DNA from: Escherichia phage ECML-4
Sequence record: JX128257
Reading direction: 5' to 3' (one strand)
DNA length: 64,000 nucleotides
In this document: in pieces, positions 2,213 to 54,956 of the stretch
How positions within the stretch are numbered: the stretch's first letter is position 1
Layout of the letters: each line of letters begins with the position of its first letter
The notes under the pieces: generated by a model
What the model was told of the DNA's origin: nothing
The model's database searches: none
The model's input: only the letters and a program-made list of their open reading frames with translations
Made by a program: the position numbers and the translations under genes

Positions 2213-5209
2213 TCAACCTTTCTTGCCCATCATGGACAACAGATTAACTCGACGTTTGTGAGACCAACCAACCACGTCTAGAATAGACTGAATCGGCTCT
2301 ATGAAGGTCTTTTCAAACGTGGTGTGGTAATCTACCCACTTATCCAGCCCCAACTCCGGAGGGAGGAAGTCAGGGAAGGCTATGCGGTCGTTCCCCACAG
2401 GGTTCCCAGGTTTCAGGTTAATGATTTTAACCTTATCGCCAGATTCTATCGGCGGGAGACCGAGGTCTTCATGCTTGTCTATCAGCTTGTTGTACATAAT
2501 ACAAGCCTTGGCAGCAAAGTGTGTGCCACTGATATAATTTCCGTTGCCGTCTAACCACTTCTCAATATCACTAACGCCAGAGGCTTGAGCAATATCATCC
2601 ACGGTTAATTCCATATATTCCTTCTTATAACCCGCGATCAATTCCTGAACTTCAGCCTCCGTCCCCAGCAGAACTTTCTCATAGCATTTAACCAGACGCT
2701 CACGACACCATTCCGGCGTTGTAGATTTACGCGCTTCCAGACCTTTGAATTTTATCTTTGGCTTCTCATACTTGATGCCTTCGCTATCGTATACTGCCAT
2801 GCAATACATCTTCTTGGCTCGCCATACAGCAGACGATGCGATGACCTCACGTTCCCAGACCATGCGCTGCTCAAACCCGTTCATGGTATTACACAACAAC
2901 TGCGCCCATTCACTGGTTTTTGGCTGGTAATTCTCTTTGATCCATTGGTCAATGTTATCAACGAGTTTGTGATGATCCTTTTCTTCAGGCCACAATTGCT
3001 TGACCAGACGTTCAATGCAAATGTAGTTGGAGTCAGTATCACCCGCGATAACAAAATCCTGACCAGTAGTGCCGCAAAGTTTGTTCAGATAATCATCGGT
3101 GTGGCGTTTGTTCCATTTGTTGATCAGCTGGCCGGAAGTGGTGATTGCTTCAGCGATGTTGATGTTGAAGTATTCTTTAAACCAGACGTTGGAGATTGCG
3201 CCATAACCTGCGTTCATCAAGATCTTCAGACCTTGTTGTAACGTGTCTTGAGCAACCCCCAGATCTTCCCACTTGTGCATGACTTCAGTCAGGTGATCAA
3301 GATCGATGTGCTTGTGTTCTTCATACCATTCAGGATCGTAGAAACGAGACTTCATGGCGGATTCAAGGTGGAAATCACCTTTAGACATTTCCTTACACCA
3401 ACCAGCCCATTGCTCATACTTCAGGCCAGTTGCTTTCTCTCCTTTACGGTCAGCGTATATGCCTCGCATAATTTCGGAAAGGAAGGACATCTTCTCATTA
3501 CTGAAGAACTGAACGTTCGGGGTAAACGAAACGTTATATCGGCGTAGTGTTTCAAAATGGAATTCGCCCAGCGCGACCAATTCATCAACAACTTGTATGC
3601 GTTCATCAATAGCACGCTGCAACTTGTCGTGAAGATTTTTGAGATGACGACGTTTATTCATCGGCGTTGTCATATCATTCATCGCTTTGGTCAATTCCTC
3701 ACACATGGCCTCAATAATATCACGGCGGGTGTGCTTATCAGAAACGATAGTCTCTGGACCAAGGTTGTATTGCTGTATGATGTGGGGATACAGGGAGTTT
3801 AAGTCCTCAGAGAAGACCCAGAAATATATCCCTGGTGCAACCTCCATGACATATGCGCCTTCAAAATCTGTTGGCCCATCATAGACGCGCTGGATTTTCG
3901 GGACAATCCCCTTCTCATAAAGACGATAATAACACATCGCCAGCCACGGCGCTACAGTGCCGAGACCGTCTTCATAGTTGGATTTAGTGCGATAAGCCAA
4001 TACAAACATCAGCTGTATCAAACGCAGTTTTTGTTCTAAGCGCCACACCAGCTTGACGTCTTTGATACCATATCGCGTATGCTTGCAATAATCATTGAAA
4101 TAAAGGTCATACAATGATTTGCTTTCACTATAATCCAACTTCTTCTCACCGAGTTCACAATAAGCGATCCAGTCCAGTGAGTATTTTTCACGGGTGGTGT
4201 AAGTGTGTTTCTTGTACACTTGCATGTAGTCCATCATTGGACAACCCACAAACTGATAAGACGTGACGTCGCCTTTACGGTCTTTGATGAAACGTTTCTT
4301 CAGTTTACCCCAAGGACTGAGACGTTGGGCTTCAGATTCACCAAGAACCTGCGTAATTCGTTCAACCAAATAGGGGCTATCGAACGTTTCAATGTTCCAC
4401 CCAGTCCAACCGTCAAATTGACGCTGCGACCAGTAATCCAAGAAGGCGCGAAGCAGATCTTGTTCCGTCGTATATTCTTTATATTCAACCTCAAGACCGC
4501 CGACTTCTTCATCATTGGGGTCATATTTGAATTTATGGCGATCCTTGGAACACGGCATGCCCCAGACATAGAATTTATTGGTATTCATATCTTGGAGCTG
4601 TATCAGCGTAATAGGGAACGCCGCATTCATGTTCTGTGTGATTTTACCGTTACTGTCAATTATAGGGAATTGGTCAGTCACGTTGTTGGAAATAAAGGAA
4701 CCAGGGAAATGCTCCCGAACGAAATCATGGTTGGCCAGTACTTGCTTATGGAAACGACGAACCCGCGCCTCGCTGCCTTTAAACGTGTGAGATTCAATCG
4801 TTGCGTGTGGGAATGGACCTTTAGTCATTTCTCCGTCACGCCAACCAGCCGAGAACACTTCGATATCCACGTTGGCGATGTGGATATTTGAATAATCAGG
4901 TGTGATCATCCCAGGAAAACTATGGGCGATGAATTGATATGCATAATCCGTTTGTCCATACACCGCAGCCCCTTCGACCTCCTTGTACTCCTCAAGATAG
5001 TTGTCAGCGTCGCGCATTGATGCAAACTTTTTAGACACCAACGGTTCGTTGAGGAGGCCAATCTTTTCAACTTTGGAATAATCAGCTGTGGGTAAATACA
5101 AGGTGGGTTCGAATTTCTTACGCAACATGCGGCGATTGCCGTTGTCGTCTGCGATACGAATCAGAAGGTCGTTACCCTGTCGGGCAACGTTCGTATAGAA
5201 AACAGTCAT
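2213..5209 (-). CDS. DNA polymerase, family B (T4 gp43-like)
   Basis: Motif A DLNSLYPHII and motif C VIAGDTDS present; overall collinear with remembered T4 gp43. Start chosen at ATG 5209 (MTVFYTN) preceded by GGAGACAAACA; track ORF extends to 5311. Confidence 0.93.
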   Translation of the reverse strand: MTVFYTNVARQGNDLLIRIADDNGNRRMLRKKFEPTLYLPTADYSKVEKIGLLNEPLVSKKFASMRDADNYLEEYKEVEGAAVYGQTDYAYQFIAHSFPGMITPDYSNIHIANVDIEVFSAGWRDGEMTKGPFPHATIESHTFKGSEARVRRFHKQVLANHDFVREHFPGSFISNNVTDQFPIIDSNGKITQNMNAAFPITLIQLQDMNTNKFYVWGMPCSKDRHKFKYDPNDEEVGGLEVEYKEYTTEQDLLRAFLDYWSQRQFDGWTGWNIETFDSPYLVERITQVLGESEAQRLSPWGKLKKRFIKDRKGDVTSYQFVGCPMMDYMQVYKKHTYTTREKYSLDWIAYCELGEKKLDYSESKSLYDLYFNDYCKHTRYGIKDVKLVWRLEQKLRLIQLMFVLAYRTKSNYEDGLGTVAPWLAMCYYRLYEKGIVPKIQRVYDGPTDFEGAYVMEVAPGIYFWVFSEDLNSLYPHIIQQYNLGPETIVSDKHTRRDIIEAMCEELTKAMNDMTTPMNKRRHLKNLHDKLQRAIDERIQVVDELVALGEFHFETLRRYNVSFTPNVQFFSNEKMSFLSEIMRGIYADRKGEKATGLKYEQWAGWCKEMSKGDFHLESAMKSRFYDPEWYEEHKHIDLDHLTEVMHKWEDLGVAQDTLQQGLKILMNAGYGAISNVWFKEYFNINIAEAITTSGQLINKWNKRHTDDYLNKLCGTTGQDFVIAGDTDSNYICIERLVKQLWPEEKDHHKLVDNIDQWIKENYQPKTSEWAQLLCNTMNGFEQRMVWEREVIASSAVWRAKKMYCMAVYDSEGIKYEKPKIKFKGLEARKSTTPEWCRERLVKCYEKVLLGTEAEVQELIAGYKKEYMELTVDDIAQASGVSDIEKWLDGNGNYISGTHFAAKACIMYNKLIDKHEDLGLPPIESGDKVKIINLKPGNPVGNDRIAFPDFLPPELGLDKWVDYHTTFEKTFIEPIQSILDVVGWSHKRRVNLLSMMGKKG

Positions 5210-5270
5210 TGTTTGTCTCCGGTTAACCGTGCCGTCAGCACGTCCCCGTAATTTAACCGAGGAACGTTCA

Positions 5271-5861
5271 ATGACCAAGGAGTTTAAAATGGCAATCCCC
5301 TTTGTGAGCATGATTCCAGGGGCGCTAAAGCAACTCTGGAATCTTGGGACTGATTTGGTGCAATATAAGCGGGAAATTGTTCAGGCTAAACACGATGTTA
5401 AACTGGAGGCAATAAAGTCTTCTTCAGAATGGGAACTTTCTAAGATTACCGAAGTCGGCGGATCTTGGAAAGATGAATTCTGGACAATCGTTTTGGCTGT
5501 TCCCGCTATCCTTGTTATGATCGCTCCGGTTGTGGAACTTCTAATGTTCCCCACCGAGTATCATAAAGGGGATTTCATCAAAGCAGTAATTGATGGTATG
5601 CAAGCCCTTGAAACAGCGCCTGATTGGTATACTGCTTCGCTATTGACAGCAATTAGTGCATCATTCGGTATCAAGGGGTACAACCATTACAAAAGCAATA
5701 GCCGGAAGGCGCAAGCTGTGGATGCTCTCAAACAGTTTGGGGTCAAAGTGGTTAACAAAGATCCCACTGTTGTTACTCAGTCGGGTTCTCCCGATCTTGA
5801 GTCTGCTCCCCCAGCTGGGTCTACTGCGACCTCTGGTGCGTGGCCTGATCTGAAGAAATAA
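5271..5861 (+). CDS. putative membrane protein
   Basis: Start ATG 5271 after GAGGAACG RBS; hydrophobic segment FWTIVLAVPAILVMIAPVVELLMF; divergent from the polymerase gene. Confidence 0.5.
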   Translation: MTKEFKMAIPFVSMIPGALKQLWNLGTDLVQYKREIVQAKHDVKLEAIKSSSEWELSKITEVGGSWKDEFWTIVLAVPAILVMIAPVVELLMFPTEYHKGDFIKAVIDGMQALETAPDWYTASLLTAISASFGIKGYNHYKSNSRKAQAVDALKQFGVKVVNKDPTVVTQSGSPDLESAPPAGSTATSGAWPDLKK

Positions 5862-8489: not shown

Positions 8490-8528
8490 GGATACCCCAC
8501 ACTTGCTGTATGGGGTATTTAGGAGGGA

Positions 8529-20080: not shown

Positions 20081-20120
20081 CTAAATACCCCTAGATGACA
20101 TGAATACATTTAGGGGTATT
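20081..20120 (+). promoter_or_regulatory. late-promoter-like CTAAATA box embedded in 10-bp inverted repeat
   Basis: CTAAATACCCCTA ... TAGGGGTATT immediately upstream of ATG 20125. Confidence 0.5.
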
Positions 20121-23306: not shown

Positions 23307-23345
23307 GCCTAAATACCCCATATTGGTCATCCTTTATGGGGTATT
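23307..23345 (+). promoter_or_regulatory. late-promoter-like CTAAATA box embedded in 11-bp perfect inverted repeat
   Basis: AATACCCCATA (23312-23322) and TATGGGGTATT (23335-23345), 3 nt before ATG 23349. Confidence 0.55.
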
Positions 23346-25842: not shown

Positions 25843-25881
25843 CCTAAATACCCCATATTGGCAAATCCTTTATGGGGTATT
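25843..25881 (+). promoter_or_regulatory. late-promoter-like CTAAATA box embedded in 11-bp perfect inverted repeat
   Basis: AATACCCCATA (25847-25857) and TATGGGGTATT (25871-25881); same arms as the element at 23312-23345. Confidence 0.55.
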
Positions 25882-50817: not shown

Positions 50818-50837
50818 TCAACAGATTTTGATAAACA

Positions 50838-50866
50838 AACCCCGCCATGTGCGGGGTTTTTCTTTA
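50838..50866 (+). terminator. strong rho-independent terminator after the capsid gene
   Basis: AAACCCCGC-CATGT-GCGGGGTTT followed by TTCTTTAT. Confidence 0.75.
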
Positions 50867-51823: not shown

Positions 51824-52198
51824 ATGAGCAATTTACCACTGCTTCAAGTCGGTGACGTATTCATTCTCACGGCAGAAATGACCGTTGAAACTCAGGTGCC
51901 AAAGCATTTCTTGTATTCTAATTGCAAGGGTGATTGGCAAATGGACTCTGGTTATATCACCCCTGAGGGATTCTTCGGTTACATGCAAGGACATTACGTC
52001 GTTACCAAAACAGCCCTACAAGGCGGTAGCACTGGTCATGATCCATACCCTGACGGCCATCATGTTTGGGCGCAGCATACCGAAAATGAACGCATCAGAA
52101 TCTGTTTCTATCAGACAGGTAGTTTCAGGAATATGCACCGGAATGTTCCAGTAGTCGGAAAGGCTAAGGCGCAAACATGGACTTGGGAGAAATTATGA
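51824..52198 (+). CDS. hypothetical protein (124 aa)
   Basis: Complete ORF. Confidence 0.5.
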   Translation: MSNLPLLQVGDVFILTAEMTVETQVPKHFLYSNCKGDWQMDSGYITPEGFFGYMQGHYVVTKTALQGGSTGHDPYPDGHHVWAQHTENERIRICFYQTGSFRNMHRNVPVVGKAKAQTWTWEKL

Positions 52199-52431
52199 AA
52201 ATCAAAAAGATAGGTGCAAGCCCATTGACGGGAACAATCTTCCAGGGCACTTTGAACACCAAGACCAGTATGTGGGTCGGTGAGAAGACTGATGTGACTA
52301 ACGACTGTGTAGCGGCTACGGCTGAACACATGCGTCACATCAAGAAAGACTACTGCTTCCCTACTAAAGACGGCAAGTTCCTGGTGCTGAGCGCTGAGGT
52401 TCACGACACCCTTCCTGATCGCTTCAAATAA
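52196..52431 (+). CDS. hypothetical protein (78 aa)
   Basis: ATG 52196 after GGAGAAATT; ATGA overlap with upstream stop. Confidence 0.45.
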
Positions 52432-53247: not shown

Positions 53248-53568
53248 ATGGCAGTAAGATCGGTTGAAATCTCGAAGATGGTGCGTCGCGGAACCCGTAA
53301 ACCCCGCGCGGGGCGTCATCTGAACACCAAACTGGATCTTCTGAAACAGAAGTTCGGCGGCCACAGTGTGTTTACCCGTATCCGCAACGCATTAAAGGAA
53401 GGGCGAACCGAGTTGGAGCTATATCGTCCGAACGGTTCGACTCGAGCGTATCAGACCACCGACGGTTTGCTGGAACTGATCCGCCTATCAGGGATGAACA
53501 TAGAACCCCGTTCATCAGGAACCCCGCTATGCAGCCTGTACGTCATCAGCAATCTTGGGGCGCTGTGA
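53248..53568 (+). CDS. hypothetical protein (106 aa), basic N-terminus
   Basis: ATG after GAGGACTTTATC. Confidence 0.45.
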   Translation: MAVRSVEISKMVRRGTRKPRAGRHLNTKLDLLKQKFGGHSVFTRIRNALKEGRTELELYRPNGSTRAYQTTDGLLELIRLSGMNIEPRSSGTPLCSLYVISNLGAL

Positions 53569-53573
53569 GTTCT

Positions 53574-53996
53574 ATGAAGAAGTATATCGTTCTTATAACG
53601 GGTTCCCGTTCTATAACTGAGCGGGACAAAATATTTGCCAAATTAGATGAACTCTTAATCCCTCACGAGATAGAGACGTTTATTGAAGGTGAAGCAGTGG
53701 GTGTGGATCTGATATCCCGTGATTGGTGTGAAATCAATTATGTGCATATCACACCAATGCCGATTCCTCAAAATTACCATACGTTATATGGGAAAGGTGC
53801 GGGCAATCAACGTAACAAAGATATGCTGGACAAGGCTCTAACATTGGCGAAGCAAAAAGATCTTGAGGTCTTTGGAATTGCATTATGGGATGGTTCGTCT
53901 ACTGGGACGCAAGACATGATCAAGCGCATGAAGAAAGCGGGAATAAATGTCAATATCACTCTCATGGGCAAACCCAAAACCAAACGATTGTTATAA
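53574..53996 (+). CDS. SLOG-superfamily protein (DUF2493 / YspA-like, tentative)
   Basis: ITGSRS ... GEAVGVDLISRDWCE ... YGKGAGNQRNKDML ... LWDGSSTGTQDMIKRMKKAG pattern resembles the Rossmannoid SLOG/DUF2493 signature. Start ATG 53574. Confidence 0.45.
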   Translation: MKKYIVLITGSRSITERDKIFAKLDELLIPHEIETFIEGEAVGVDLISRDWCEINYVHITPMPIPQNYHTLYGKGAGNQRNKDMLDKALTLAKQKDLEVFGIALWDGSSTGTQDMIKRMKKAGINVNITLMGKPKTKRLL

Positions 53997-54026
53997 ATAA
54001 ATTTGCCACCCATGAGGAGTTATACC

Positions 54027-54197
54027 ATGTTACAAATACTGTTGGTGCTTTGTGTCGCATTTACCATGTACTTCATGGCACGCATCGGTTTTATTACTTT
54101 AGATGACATGAAGGGTATCCCACGTGAACCCAAATTCATCTTTCTGAAGAAGTTTGCCAAAAAGTTCTCAGAAAACTTTATTTATCATCTACCATGA
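54027..54197 (+). CDS. small membrane protein (56 aa)
   Basis: ATG 54027 after GAGGAG; MLQILLVLCVAFTMYFMARIGF hydrophobic N-terminus; track ORF starts at TTG 54003. Confidence 0.4.
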   Translation: MLQILLVLCVAFTMYFMARIGFITLDDMKGIPREPKFIFLKKFAKKFSENFIYHLP

Positions 54198-54224
54198 TTA
54201 AATACCCCCAAAATTGGGGGTATT
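54198..54224 (+). promoter_or_regulatory. late-promoter-like TTAAATA box embedded in 12-bp perfect inverted repeat
   Basis: AAATACCCCCAA-AA-TTGGGGGTATTT, 3 nt before ATG 54228. Confidence 0.5.
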
Positions 54225-54227
54225 TTT

Positions 54228-54956
54228 ATGAACGCACAAATCTATGATGTCCTTTCCTCTGGCAATGCATTTAGCAATCCGCTTCCATCCCTCTCCGGTC
54301 CTTCTCAGGATTTAATAACCAGTGGCATCACCAATATACCATTGATAACTGCCAACGCTACTCCGGAGATGCAGGCGGCTATGGCAGCTGGTGGACTAAC
54401 ACCAGAAAAACTCACAGCAGCCAGCACCATGTATAGCACCGCCAACACAGGGATAACAACTCTGAACACATATGGCGACCAAAGTATCAATGACGCGTAT
54501 TCTCGCATCGGTACTTCCGTGTCATACAAATCAGGTCTGAAGGGTATATCACGAGAGCCAAACAATTGTGATTTGATCAACAAGGCTTTTGGTGTTGTTC
54601 AGGATTTAGGACGCCAATGGCTGAATGCTATGGAAGGCGCTCTACAGACCGTAACAAACAAGATATCGGAATTGTATGAGATGATCATGGAAGGTGCCTC
54701 AGAAGGAATGGCAAAGCTGCAGGAATTGGCTGCAGAAGTAACGGGACACATCAATACTGCGATAACCGCAGTCAACGGGGTTATAAGTGATATTACAGAT
54801 GGTATAGCCGCAGAACTTGCTCACATTGAAAGTATGATCAAAGAGTGCTTGAATTTCTCTTTTGCTAACGTGCTCGGGGAATGGGCTAAAGATCTGTGCG
54901 CCGGAGGTGTTATTGACAAAATAGGGACTCCAGCATTAAAAGAATCCCTGAAATAA
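54228..54956 (+). CDS. hypothetical protein (242 aa), probably late-expressed
   Basis: Preceded by the late-promoter/hairpin cassette; Ala/Thr/Gly-rich. Confidence 0.55.
   Translation: MNAQIYDVLSSGNAFSNPLPSLSGPSQDLITSGITNIPLITANATPEMQAAMAAGGLTPEKLTAASTMYSTANTGITTLNTYGDQSINDAYSRIGTSVSYKSGLKGISREPNNCDLINKAFGVVQDLGRQWLNAMEGALQTVTNKISELYEMIMEGASEGMAKLQELAAEVTGHINTAITAVNGVISDITDGIAAELAHIESMIKECLNFSFANVLGEWAKDLCAGGVIDKIGTPALKESLK

Follow-up and report, generated by a model that had tools for sequence, protein, structure and literature searches.

A stand-alone YAcAr-type SLOG protein of an Escherichia kuttervirus and its possible relationship to DprA

The window analysed here, a stretch of 64,000 nucleotides from Escherichia phage ECML-4 (JX128257), carries on its plus strand at 53574..53996 (stop codon included) a gene for a stand-alone YAcAr SLOG-domain protein (PF10686, formerly DUF2493). 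The reading frame of 140 codons plus stop lies exactly where a sequence-only reading had placed it. A longer mechanical ORF that begins at ATG 53529 and encodes 155 residues is annotated in many GenBank records. We prefer the start at 53574 because the homologues from other genera, which are 138–143 residues long, begin at the position of the MKK, and because the stop codon of the upstream gene is at 53568, 5 bases ahead of this ATG. The gene is real and well conserved, and its set of motifs is far beyond what chance would produce. The region shares 99.8–99.9% identity with Salmonella phage vB_SenM-AKM_ssTn as well as with Escherichia phage 3HA11, and 97% with Vi01, so that the window represents a Vi01-like Kuttervirus (Ackermannviridae).

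The surrounding gene order starts with portal, prohead protease, scaffold and major capsid protein, after which a terminator-like hairpin (50837..50859, plus strand) forms the upstream boundary of an island of small genes. About 10 of these precede a gene for a 106-residue protein (53248..53568, plus strand), the SLOG gene itself and a small hydrophobic ORF of 56 residues (54027..54197, plus strand; PHROG 4845), which is annotated in related phages. A terminator / CTAAATACCCC-like element separates this group from the gene for a DUF7217 protein of 242 residues (54228..54956, plus strand; Pfam PF23854, E=5e-99), whose counterpart in a sister phage is part of the virion. Further on are an oppositely oriented lipoprotein-like DUF7424 gene, a tail completion protein and UvsY (56178–56633), followed by a PD-(D/E)XK exonuclease and a UvsW-like helicase (together 56606–58913), the sliding clamp (59629–60297) and the clamp loader. 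The distance from the SLOG gene to uvsY-exonuclease-uvsW, downstream of it, is about 2 kb. The sequence-only reading had put the gene among small early genes. This context finds no support, as the gene is outside any recognisable early region, in a terminator-bounded island between the genes for the major capsid protein and a virion protein.

The element that closes the SLOG transcription unit (54198..54227, plus strand) consists of TTAAATACCCC, a CCCCC..GGGGG hairpin and a T-run, and is annotated as a terminator in OR122688. It resembles a motif found repeatedly ahead of late genes, which is enriched (7 found against 0.76 expected). A scan of the small-gene island for sigma-70-like promoters returned matches no more frequently than in shuffled sequence, and the sequence thus gives no indication of when the SLOG gene is expressed. 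The T4-type late promoter TATAAATA was discarded as a signal, as the 64 kb contain a single copy, which falls on the stop codon of the SLOG gene and is within chance expectation. Our literature search found no Ackermannviridae transcriptome, and the CBA120 paper gives the promoters of this phage family as unidentified.

The 106-residue partner, which belongs to PHROG 4663, occurs in Ackermannviridae only and always directly upstream of the SLOG gene. It carries the label “aspartate kinase” in phage Guerrero, which is unsupported by Pfam and by fold. A “LysC” Pfam match beside a metagenomic YAcAr gene proved to be an Rz1-like lysis protein with no relation to the partner (hhalign probability 0.07). 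The order of upstream partner, SLOG, DUF7217, tail completion protein, UvsY, exonuclease and helicase is also found in Limestonevirus, in a Klebsiella Taipeivirus-like phage and in Erwinia phage Bue1, with SLOG proteins of 44–76% identity. Because this arrangement is kept across the Ackermannviridae genera examined, we regard the SLOG gene as a fixed syntenic core gene and not as a variable accessory.

A location between capsid and tail-completion genes might indicate a virion protein, or a packaged protein delivered with the DNA. PHROG 289 could be taken in the same sense, as its 500 columns span the SLOG domain (20–146), the small ORF (158–207) and DUF7217 (259–500). We consider such a role extremely unlikely. 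Mass spectrometry of CsCl-purified Sajous1 virions detected gp166, the DUF7217 protein, while gp164, the SLOG protein, is absent from the list (PMC10892097). In addition, a terminator and a promoter-like motif lie between the SLOG and DUF7217 genes, and other phages carry the domain in replication modules. The SLOG-DUF7217 fusion suggested by the composite PHROG was likewise rejected, as no fused protein was encountered in any search and the virion proteome is without the SLOG protein.

In Pfam, the protein has a single match, to PF10686 (“YAcAr: YspA, cpYpsA-related SLOG family”; E=7e-8, 32.6 bits, with a gathering cut-off of 28.2 bits), which is the former DUF2493 according to the database names of relatives. 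The match is limited to residues 5–56 because the Pfam model has 66 positions only. PF10686 is precomputed on all 33 close homologues except two fragments. PHROG 289 is matched with E=1.7e-42; its label “GTP-binding domain” finds no support from Pfam, fold or any other tool. A search of NCBIfam gave no match. The AlphaFold2 model, computed with 16 homologues (pLDDT 93.3, pTM 0.86), has a Rossmannoid order of strands and helices, with disorder confined to the last five residues, and its top structure matches are all SLOG proteins (YpsA, ThsA-SLOG, TRPM2, ShosA, DprA and LOG). The protein has the Rossmannoid three-layer alpha/beta architecture of the SLOG fold, which is common to Smf/DprA, LOG, YpsA, MCP, the C-terminal domain of ThsA and MHR1/2 of TRPM. 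Membership in the YAcAr/SLOG family is practically certain. The sequence-only reading had recognised a SLOG / DUF2493-like protein correctly from motifs alone, as both profile and fold confirm, which was a good call and no discovery. It had also named LOG and DprA for comparison by profile; DUF2493 is matched, while Pfam reports neither LOG (PF03641) nor DprA (PF02481) for the protein itself.

The translation contains G10-S-R-S13, G39-E-A-V-G43-V-D45, G73-K-G-A-G-N-Q-R80-N81-K-D-M-L and W105-D-G-S-S-T-G-T-Q-D-M-I. All motifs pointed out previously are thus present, with one correction of spacing, as the pattern given as GxxGxD is truly GxAxGxD. Invariance or near-invariance is seen in the Gly-rich ligand loops that follow strands 1, 2 and 4 (G10-S-R, G39xAxG43xD and G107xSxG111-T). 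From 124 diverse relatives we derived a list of invariant YAcAr residues, namely G39, G43, D45, R80, N81 and G111, all of which are present in the window protein; at least 90% conserved are G10, R12, A41, W69, A76, G77, M84, S109 and T112.

This type of protein is widespread. A profile of close homologues, searched against 1.84 billion proteins, retrieved 19,139 representatives of 50%-identity clusters at E<=1e-3, nearly all of them stand-alone proteins of 110–140 residues. With the window protein, tblastn found matches in 562 phage records, and with a more typical family member in 1,175 of 50,697 (about 2%), including 333 from mycobacteriophages. Plasmids gave 3 tblastn matches only, and a role of YAcAr in plasmid leading regions was dropped on this count. 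The family was reportedly defined by Burroughs et al. in 2015. Naming is inconsistent, with at least six conflicting labels in the databases (GTP-binding, chromosome segregation, phosphoribosyltransferase, Moco carrier, DprA-like and YspA). Proteins identical to the one described here are named in GenBank and UniRef partly as DUF2493/YspA SLOG and partly as “GTP-binding”, which is a mislabel; those with 76–86% identity are called “YspA cpYpsA-related SLOG domain-containing protein” in UniRef, and sister phages have “DUF2493 domain-containing protein” or “YspA”. The actinobacteriophage community calls members of the mycobacteriophage D29 gp61 type “DprA-like DNA processing chain A”. Our literature searches found no experimental study of binding or activity for a YAcAr protein.

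Direct searches of PDB sequences with the protein, or with a 16-sequence profile, gave nothing meaningful. When a family profile of 124 sequences was compared to 177,635 PDB sequences, it reached DprA chains only (HpDprA with E=1.4e-3, SpDprA with 9.8e-3), and DprA is thus the nearest sequence relative with a solved structure. The profile alignment places GSR on the G-T/S-R of DprA and GxAxGVD exactly on GGALGVD. The loop after strand 1, G10-S11-R12 (53601..53609, plus strand), is highly conserved and is aligned by HMMER with GTR of HpDprA and by hhalign with G114-S-R116 of E. coli Smf. The loop G39-x-A41-x-G43-x-D45 with the start of the following helix (53688..53708, plus strand), identified by conservation and alignment, falls on GGALGVD / GLARGID of DprA and carries the GxD/E signature that is common to YpsA and DprA. 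At the start of the long helix, R80-N81 of A76-G77-N-Q-R80-N81 (53799..53816, plus strand) coincides with R210-N211 of Smf in a relaxed hhalign alignment, within a stretch of low confidence; the order of the motifs along the chain is the other ground for this equivalence. About one quarter of the close relatives have a secondary match to PF02481, sub-threshold or precomputed, with scores of 17–28 bits against a cut-off of 29.6. Overall, the similarity to the DprA family is marginal in E-value and resides mainly in the N-terminal half.

The aligned residues are those with a described function in DprA. The ssDNA-binding signature of HpDprA consists of “G-S/T/A-R” and “F/L/Y-x-x-R-N/D”; R52, R143 and N144 contact DNA, with R143 and N144 contacting the inserted base, and affinity is lost 315-fold in R52E and 173-fold in R143E (PMC3950713). 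The DprA-like antitoxin ShosA uses arginines that are equivalent to those of HpDprA (PMC12961424), and YpsA depends on its GxD/E motif as an important one (PMC6459960). In the SLOG protein, G10-S11-R12 agrees with the first DprA motif, with R12 at the position of HpDprA R52. Of the second motif (alternatively A-M-x-R-N/D), R80-N81 is present and the first position is Gly77, which is neither aromatic nor Leu, so that glycine replaces the base-stacking aromatic residue of DprA.

The protein resembles the YAcAr members D29 gp61, KVP40.0155 and the C-terminal domain of ICP1 HelB in its four motifs and its phage habitat, and belongs to the same length class as stand-alone YAcAr proteins (110–140 residues). 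In contrast to DprA / Smf, its domain comprises about 130 instead of about 205 residues, being about 75 residues shorter and missing DprA's extra strands, and it is without SAM or DML1/winged-helix domains. YpsA from B. subtilis (PDB 2NX2) is 15% identical with no profile match, and its context differs, as it regulates Firmicute cell division and is linked to gpsB.

LOG phosphoribohydrolases, also known as “lysine decarboxylase-like”, are characterised by the catalytic motif PGGxGTxxE with its catalytic Glu. At the corresponding position, the loop after strand 4, W105-D-G-S-S109-T-G111-T112 (53886..53909, plus strand), continues as W-D-G-S-S-T-G-T-Q-D-M and has neither P-G-G nor the Glu. We conclude that the LOG catalytic motif is absent, because the position of the Glu is occupied by Met115; Met is found there in 71% of the family. 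A LOG-type phosphoribohydrolase or another nucleotide N-glycosidase could serve in salvage, as the sequence-only reading had considered, or could, in a phage whose DNA is modified, clear away unwanted (deoxy)nucleotides, and neighbouring genes for RNR, ThyA or dCMP deaminase in some phages would be in line with this. The lost motif, the lack of a PF03641 match and the fact that the SLOG gene is unlinked to the nucleotide-metabolism genes of the window make this very unlikely.

The proteins of the Ackermannviridae clade deviate from the YAcAr family in several respects. His replaces Trp69, which is 94% conserved in the family, a 3-residue insert (P63-I-P65) is present, and the central helix is longer. 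The clade has also gained its specific upstream partner gene and an invariant 11-residue C-terminal tail, L-M-G-K-P-K-T-K-R-L-L (53961..53993, plus strand). In the Ackermannviridae-type clade, the tail is invariant down to 44% overall identity (columns L130, G132, P134, K135, K137, R138 and L139), and it persists as hLGx[PS]K[ST][KR]RL[LIMF] in members that are merely 38–40% identical. It occurs in only 32 of 290 family proteins and is missing from the rest of the YAcAr family; the other ORFs of the window were searched for this motif and it was not found. Residues 136–140 are disordered in the AlphaFold2 model (pLDDT <50). The tail contributes a net charge of +4, which is the net positive charge of the protein. 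The folded core of the Kuttervirus protein is neutral (pI 6.8), with three semi-conserved basic pocket residues lost (positions 42, 110 and 113), in a family that is basic (median pI 8.9). Being conserved, disordered and basic then hydrophobic, this C-terminus may be a docking peptide or a basic nucleic-acid arm. We take it to resemble the ClpX recognition tail of the MuA type.

In other phages, YAcAr genes are found repeatedly in the company of replication and recombination genes. The gene sits between clamp and DNA polymerase in Vibrio phage AL-2, adjoins Dda in KVP40, follows DNA polymerase in Klebsiella FZ14 and is downstream of DnaC in Pseudomonas IME307. Bacillus Bak6 has the order DnaB-primase-x-YAcAr with a RecB-type exonuclease further on, Gordonia Forza PolI-x-x-YAcAr with a Cas4 exonuclease further on, and Campylobacter F352 UvsX-x-x-YAcAr-x-RNR, while an SF2 helicase adjoins YAcAr in a metagenomic prophage. 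The domain is also fused to the C-terminus of SF1B (Dda-like) helicases, as in ICP1 HelB and Pseudoalteromonas phage H101. Other fusions are to NADAR, DUF4326 and DUF5710, together with a tandem self-fusion; those to NADAR and DUF4326 are infrequent, with 2 among about 270 inspected relatives. Phage replication modules also house many unrelated accessory genes. Other contexts, moreover, are uninformative or point in a different direction, among them small-gene islands. Devoid of replication genes are the outermost left end of an N4-like genome, Seuratvirus, an island in which YAcAr is accompanied by dCMP deaminase, Thg1 and GIY-YIG, another in which it adjoins a glycosyltransferase, and a contig with an HD_4 (RelA/SpoT-type) hydrolase gene adjoining YAcAr and a Macro gene nearby.

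A different function was proposed by the sequence-only reading, in which the protein might sequester or process host immune signalling nucleotides. In its full form, this would mean that the SLOG pocket binds, sequesters or processes a free nucleotide signal, be it NAD+, an ADP-ribose derivative such as gcADPR, a cyclic oligonucleotide or an alarmone, and that the protein acts as a sponge or enzyme in phage counter-defence or generates a phage-made signal. The jumbo-phage review by the Aravind group predicts that YAcAr uses NAD+ to make ADP-ribose-derived signals (PMC7824862). The fold matches to ThsA and TRPM2 are consistent with such a ligand, as are the NADAR and DUF4326 fusions, which we confirmed, and the HD_4 and Macro genes on one contig; D45, R80 and N81, being invariant, would fit either catalysis or a tightly bound ligand. 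We regard a free signal as the main rival to the reading favoured below, though as somewhat unlikely. To the SLOG domain of ThsA, the 3'cADPR sensor of Thoeris (PDB 7UXS), there is a match in fold only, with no kinship detected at the sequence level, and the profile reaches DprA alone. Unlike ThsA, the protein has a single domain, with no SIR2, TIR or TM effector fused or adjacent; its neighbours are phage structural and small genes. The PADLOC defence models, searched at E<=1, gave no match, and Tad1, Tad2, Acb1, Acb2 and Apyc1 are absent among the Pfam, PHROG and PDB fold matches of the protein. Known anti-defence genes are usually patchy in distribution, whereas this gene is fixed and syntenic in all Ackermannviridae genera examined. 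Helicase fusions and a repeated location in replication modules are unexpected for a signal sponge, the known substrates of NADAR are ADP-ribosylated nucleic-acid bases and not free signals, and our literature searches found no report of such a YAcAr activity.

The substrates of NADAR raise another possibility, that the protein recognises bases of phage ssDNA that bear ADP-ribose or another bulky adduct, or strips the adduct off, and so counters toxins of the DarT type, either by N-glycosidic chemistry similar to that of LOG or as a reader for a separate hydrolase. Known NADAR enzymes cleave ADP-ribose off the guanines of ssDNA (PMC11543638, PMC11125620), so that a fusion to NADAR links YAcAr to a reverser of this modification, and orphan NADAR antitoxin-like enzymes are known in phages (PMC11825919). 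DUF4326, the other fusion partner, is predicted to bridge NAD+ systems and DNA modification (PMC7824862), and a base pocket of the DprA type would fit as well. We rate this possibility as decidedly unlikely, as the fusions are so rare, the LOG catalytic Glu is missing, and SLOG and DUF2493 are unmentioned in the NADAR papers searched. Furthermore, Kuttervirus DNA reportedly contains hypermodified thymidines (PMC5889632), and these may already blunt DarT.

Taken together, sequence kinship and gene neighbourhoods are evidence at least as strong for DNA work similar to that of DprA as for immune signals or salvage. We tentatively favour, at rather less than even chances, a minimal DprA-like module that acts on ssDNA or on a DNA-linked nucleotide. 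The protein would be a stripped-down Rossmannoid of the DprA type with a pocket built from four loops (GSR, GxAxGxD, AGxxRN and SxGT), which would hold a base or a nucleotide phosphate. R12, R80 and N81 would be the counterparts of R52, R143 and N144 of H. pylori DprA and would grip one ssDNA base. Its target would be ssDNA, or a DNA-attached nucleotide moiety, and its part in the replication, recombination or repair of the phage would be that of a module for binding or targeting, not that of a hydrolase of the LOG type. The Ackermannviridae tail, GKPKTKRLL, might tether the protein to a conserved partner or supply the basic charge that has been lost from the core.

A minimal DprA-like module is suggested by the profile kinship to DprA only, by the ssDNA motifs and by the missing LOG Glu. 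The occurrence of replication and recombination neighbours in independent lineages and the fusions to helicases, NADAR and DUF4326 suggest it too, as do uvsY-exonuclease-uvsW at a distance of about 2 kb, the family's median pI of 8.9 and the “DprA-like” naming in actinobacteriophages. Against it stand the R-x and GT motifs, which are superfamily-wide and no proof of a DNA ligand, the marginal E-values, Gly in place of the stacking aromatic, the short domain, the neutral core of the Kuttervirus protein, and several YAcAr contexts that are devoid of replication genes. A bolder extension, which we consider unlikely as a whole, is that the YAcAr proteins form a class of phage “mini-DprA” factors that is very large and has gone unrecognised. 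These would grip a flipped ssDNA base at the replication fork and then shield the ssDNA or hand it to a recombinase, or else read or erase adducts such as ADP-ribosylation of the DarT type. In the Ackermannviridae proteins, the GKPKTKRLL tail would serve as the plug that connects them to the replisome or the machinery of recombination, or as a mark for timed proteolysis.

As a catalogued member of the known YAcAr/DUF2493 branch, the protein adds nothing new by its family assignment. New are two small observations, the equivalence to the ssDNA motifs of DprA, and the clade-specific invariant tail together with the partner gene. The YAcAr domain is a fixed core gene of a phage family that is used for biocontrol of Salmonella and E. 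coli O157. Settling whether DNA or a free signalling nucleotide is the ligand of YAcAr would annotate thousands of genes at once, and would also tell whether phage SLOG pockets serve replication or counter-defence.

The labels "GTP-binding protein" and "GTP-binding domain" that GenBank attaches to the SLOG gene (53574–53996, encoding a member of the YAcAr family) derive from the name of PHROG 289 ("GTP-binding domain"), a composite profile of 500 columns to which three adjacent but separate genes within 53574–54956 each match over a different stretch: the SLOG gene over columns 20–146, a small hydrophobic ORF over columns 158–207 and the DUF7217 virion gene over columns 259–500. The label is without any support for the SLOG gene. 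Members of the YAcAr family also carry names such as "chromosome segregation protein", "phosphoribosyl transferase", "moco carrier protein" and "helicase".

The C-terminal peptide of the SLOG protein, LMGKPKTKRLL (53961–53993), does not vary between genera whose proteins share just 44% overall identity, and is predicted by the structural model to be disordered despite this invariance. The peptide may serve for docking, or alternatively as a degron resembling the MuA-type ClpX tail.

A gene for a 106-aa protein (53248–53568), confined to the Ackermannviridae, invariably adjoins the SLOG gene on its upstream side, in the window with a gap of only 5 nt. Its product has a basic, disordered N-terminus followed by a small alpha/beta domain, for which fold comparison gave weak Smr/R3H/Alba-like matches; the annotation as "aspartate kinase" in phage Guerrero is backed by neither Pfam nor fold. 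In a JGI metagenome contig of 57.7 kb, a YAcAr gene (around 5001–5342) lies within a phage-like island together with genes for SprT-like, DUF932, DnaJ, dCMP deaminase, cREC_REC, GIY-YIG and Thg1-like 3'-5' polymerase proteins, an unusual set that may represent a nucleic-acid repair or modification module.

Among the other neighbours is a 56-aa ORF (54027–54197; PHROG 4845), conserved in related phages and preceded by a strong ribosome-binding site (GAGGAG), the hydrophobic product of which (MLQILLVLCVAFTMYFMARIGF...) probably spans the membrane. Two genes belong to recently created Pfam families: a DUF7446 gene (52177–52431, 84 aa) and a DUF7424 gene (54958–55656, 232 aa), which carries a lipoprotein annotation, lies on the minus strand and is flanked by two late genes.

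Gene starts in the window, those of the scaffold and DUF7217 virion genes among them, are repeatedly preceded, at a distance of 20–45 nt, by the motif CTAAATACCCC, after which a short hairpin (CCCC...GGGG) and TAT come in most cases. Copies are located at 8512–8522 (minus strand), 20081–20091, 23309–23319, 25844–25854, 37583, 48530, 54198–54208 and 57376–57386, and the scan found none in the interior of the SLOG island, the small-gene cluster holding the SLOG gene. With at most one mismatch allowed, 7 matches were found in the window vs 0.76 expected, a count attained in none of 100 shuffles. Such a promoter element of ViI-like phages was reported as not identified in the CBA120 paper; CTAAATACCCC looks like a candidate late-promoter or leader element of this group.
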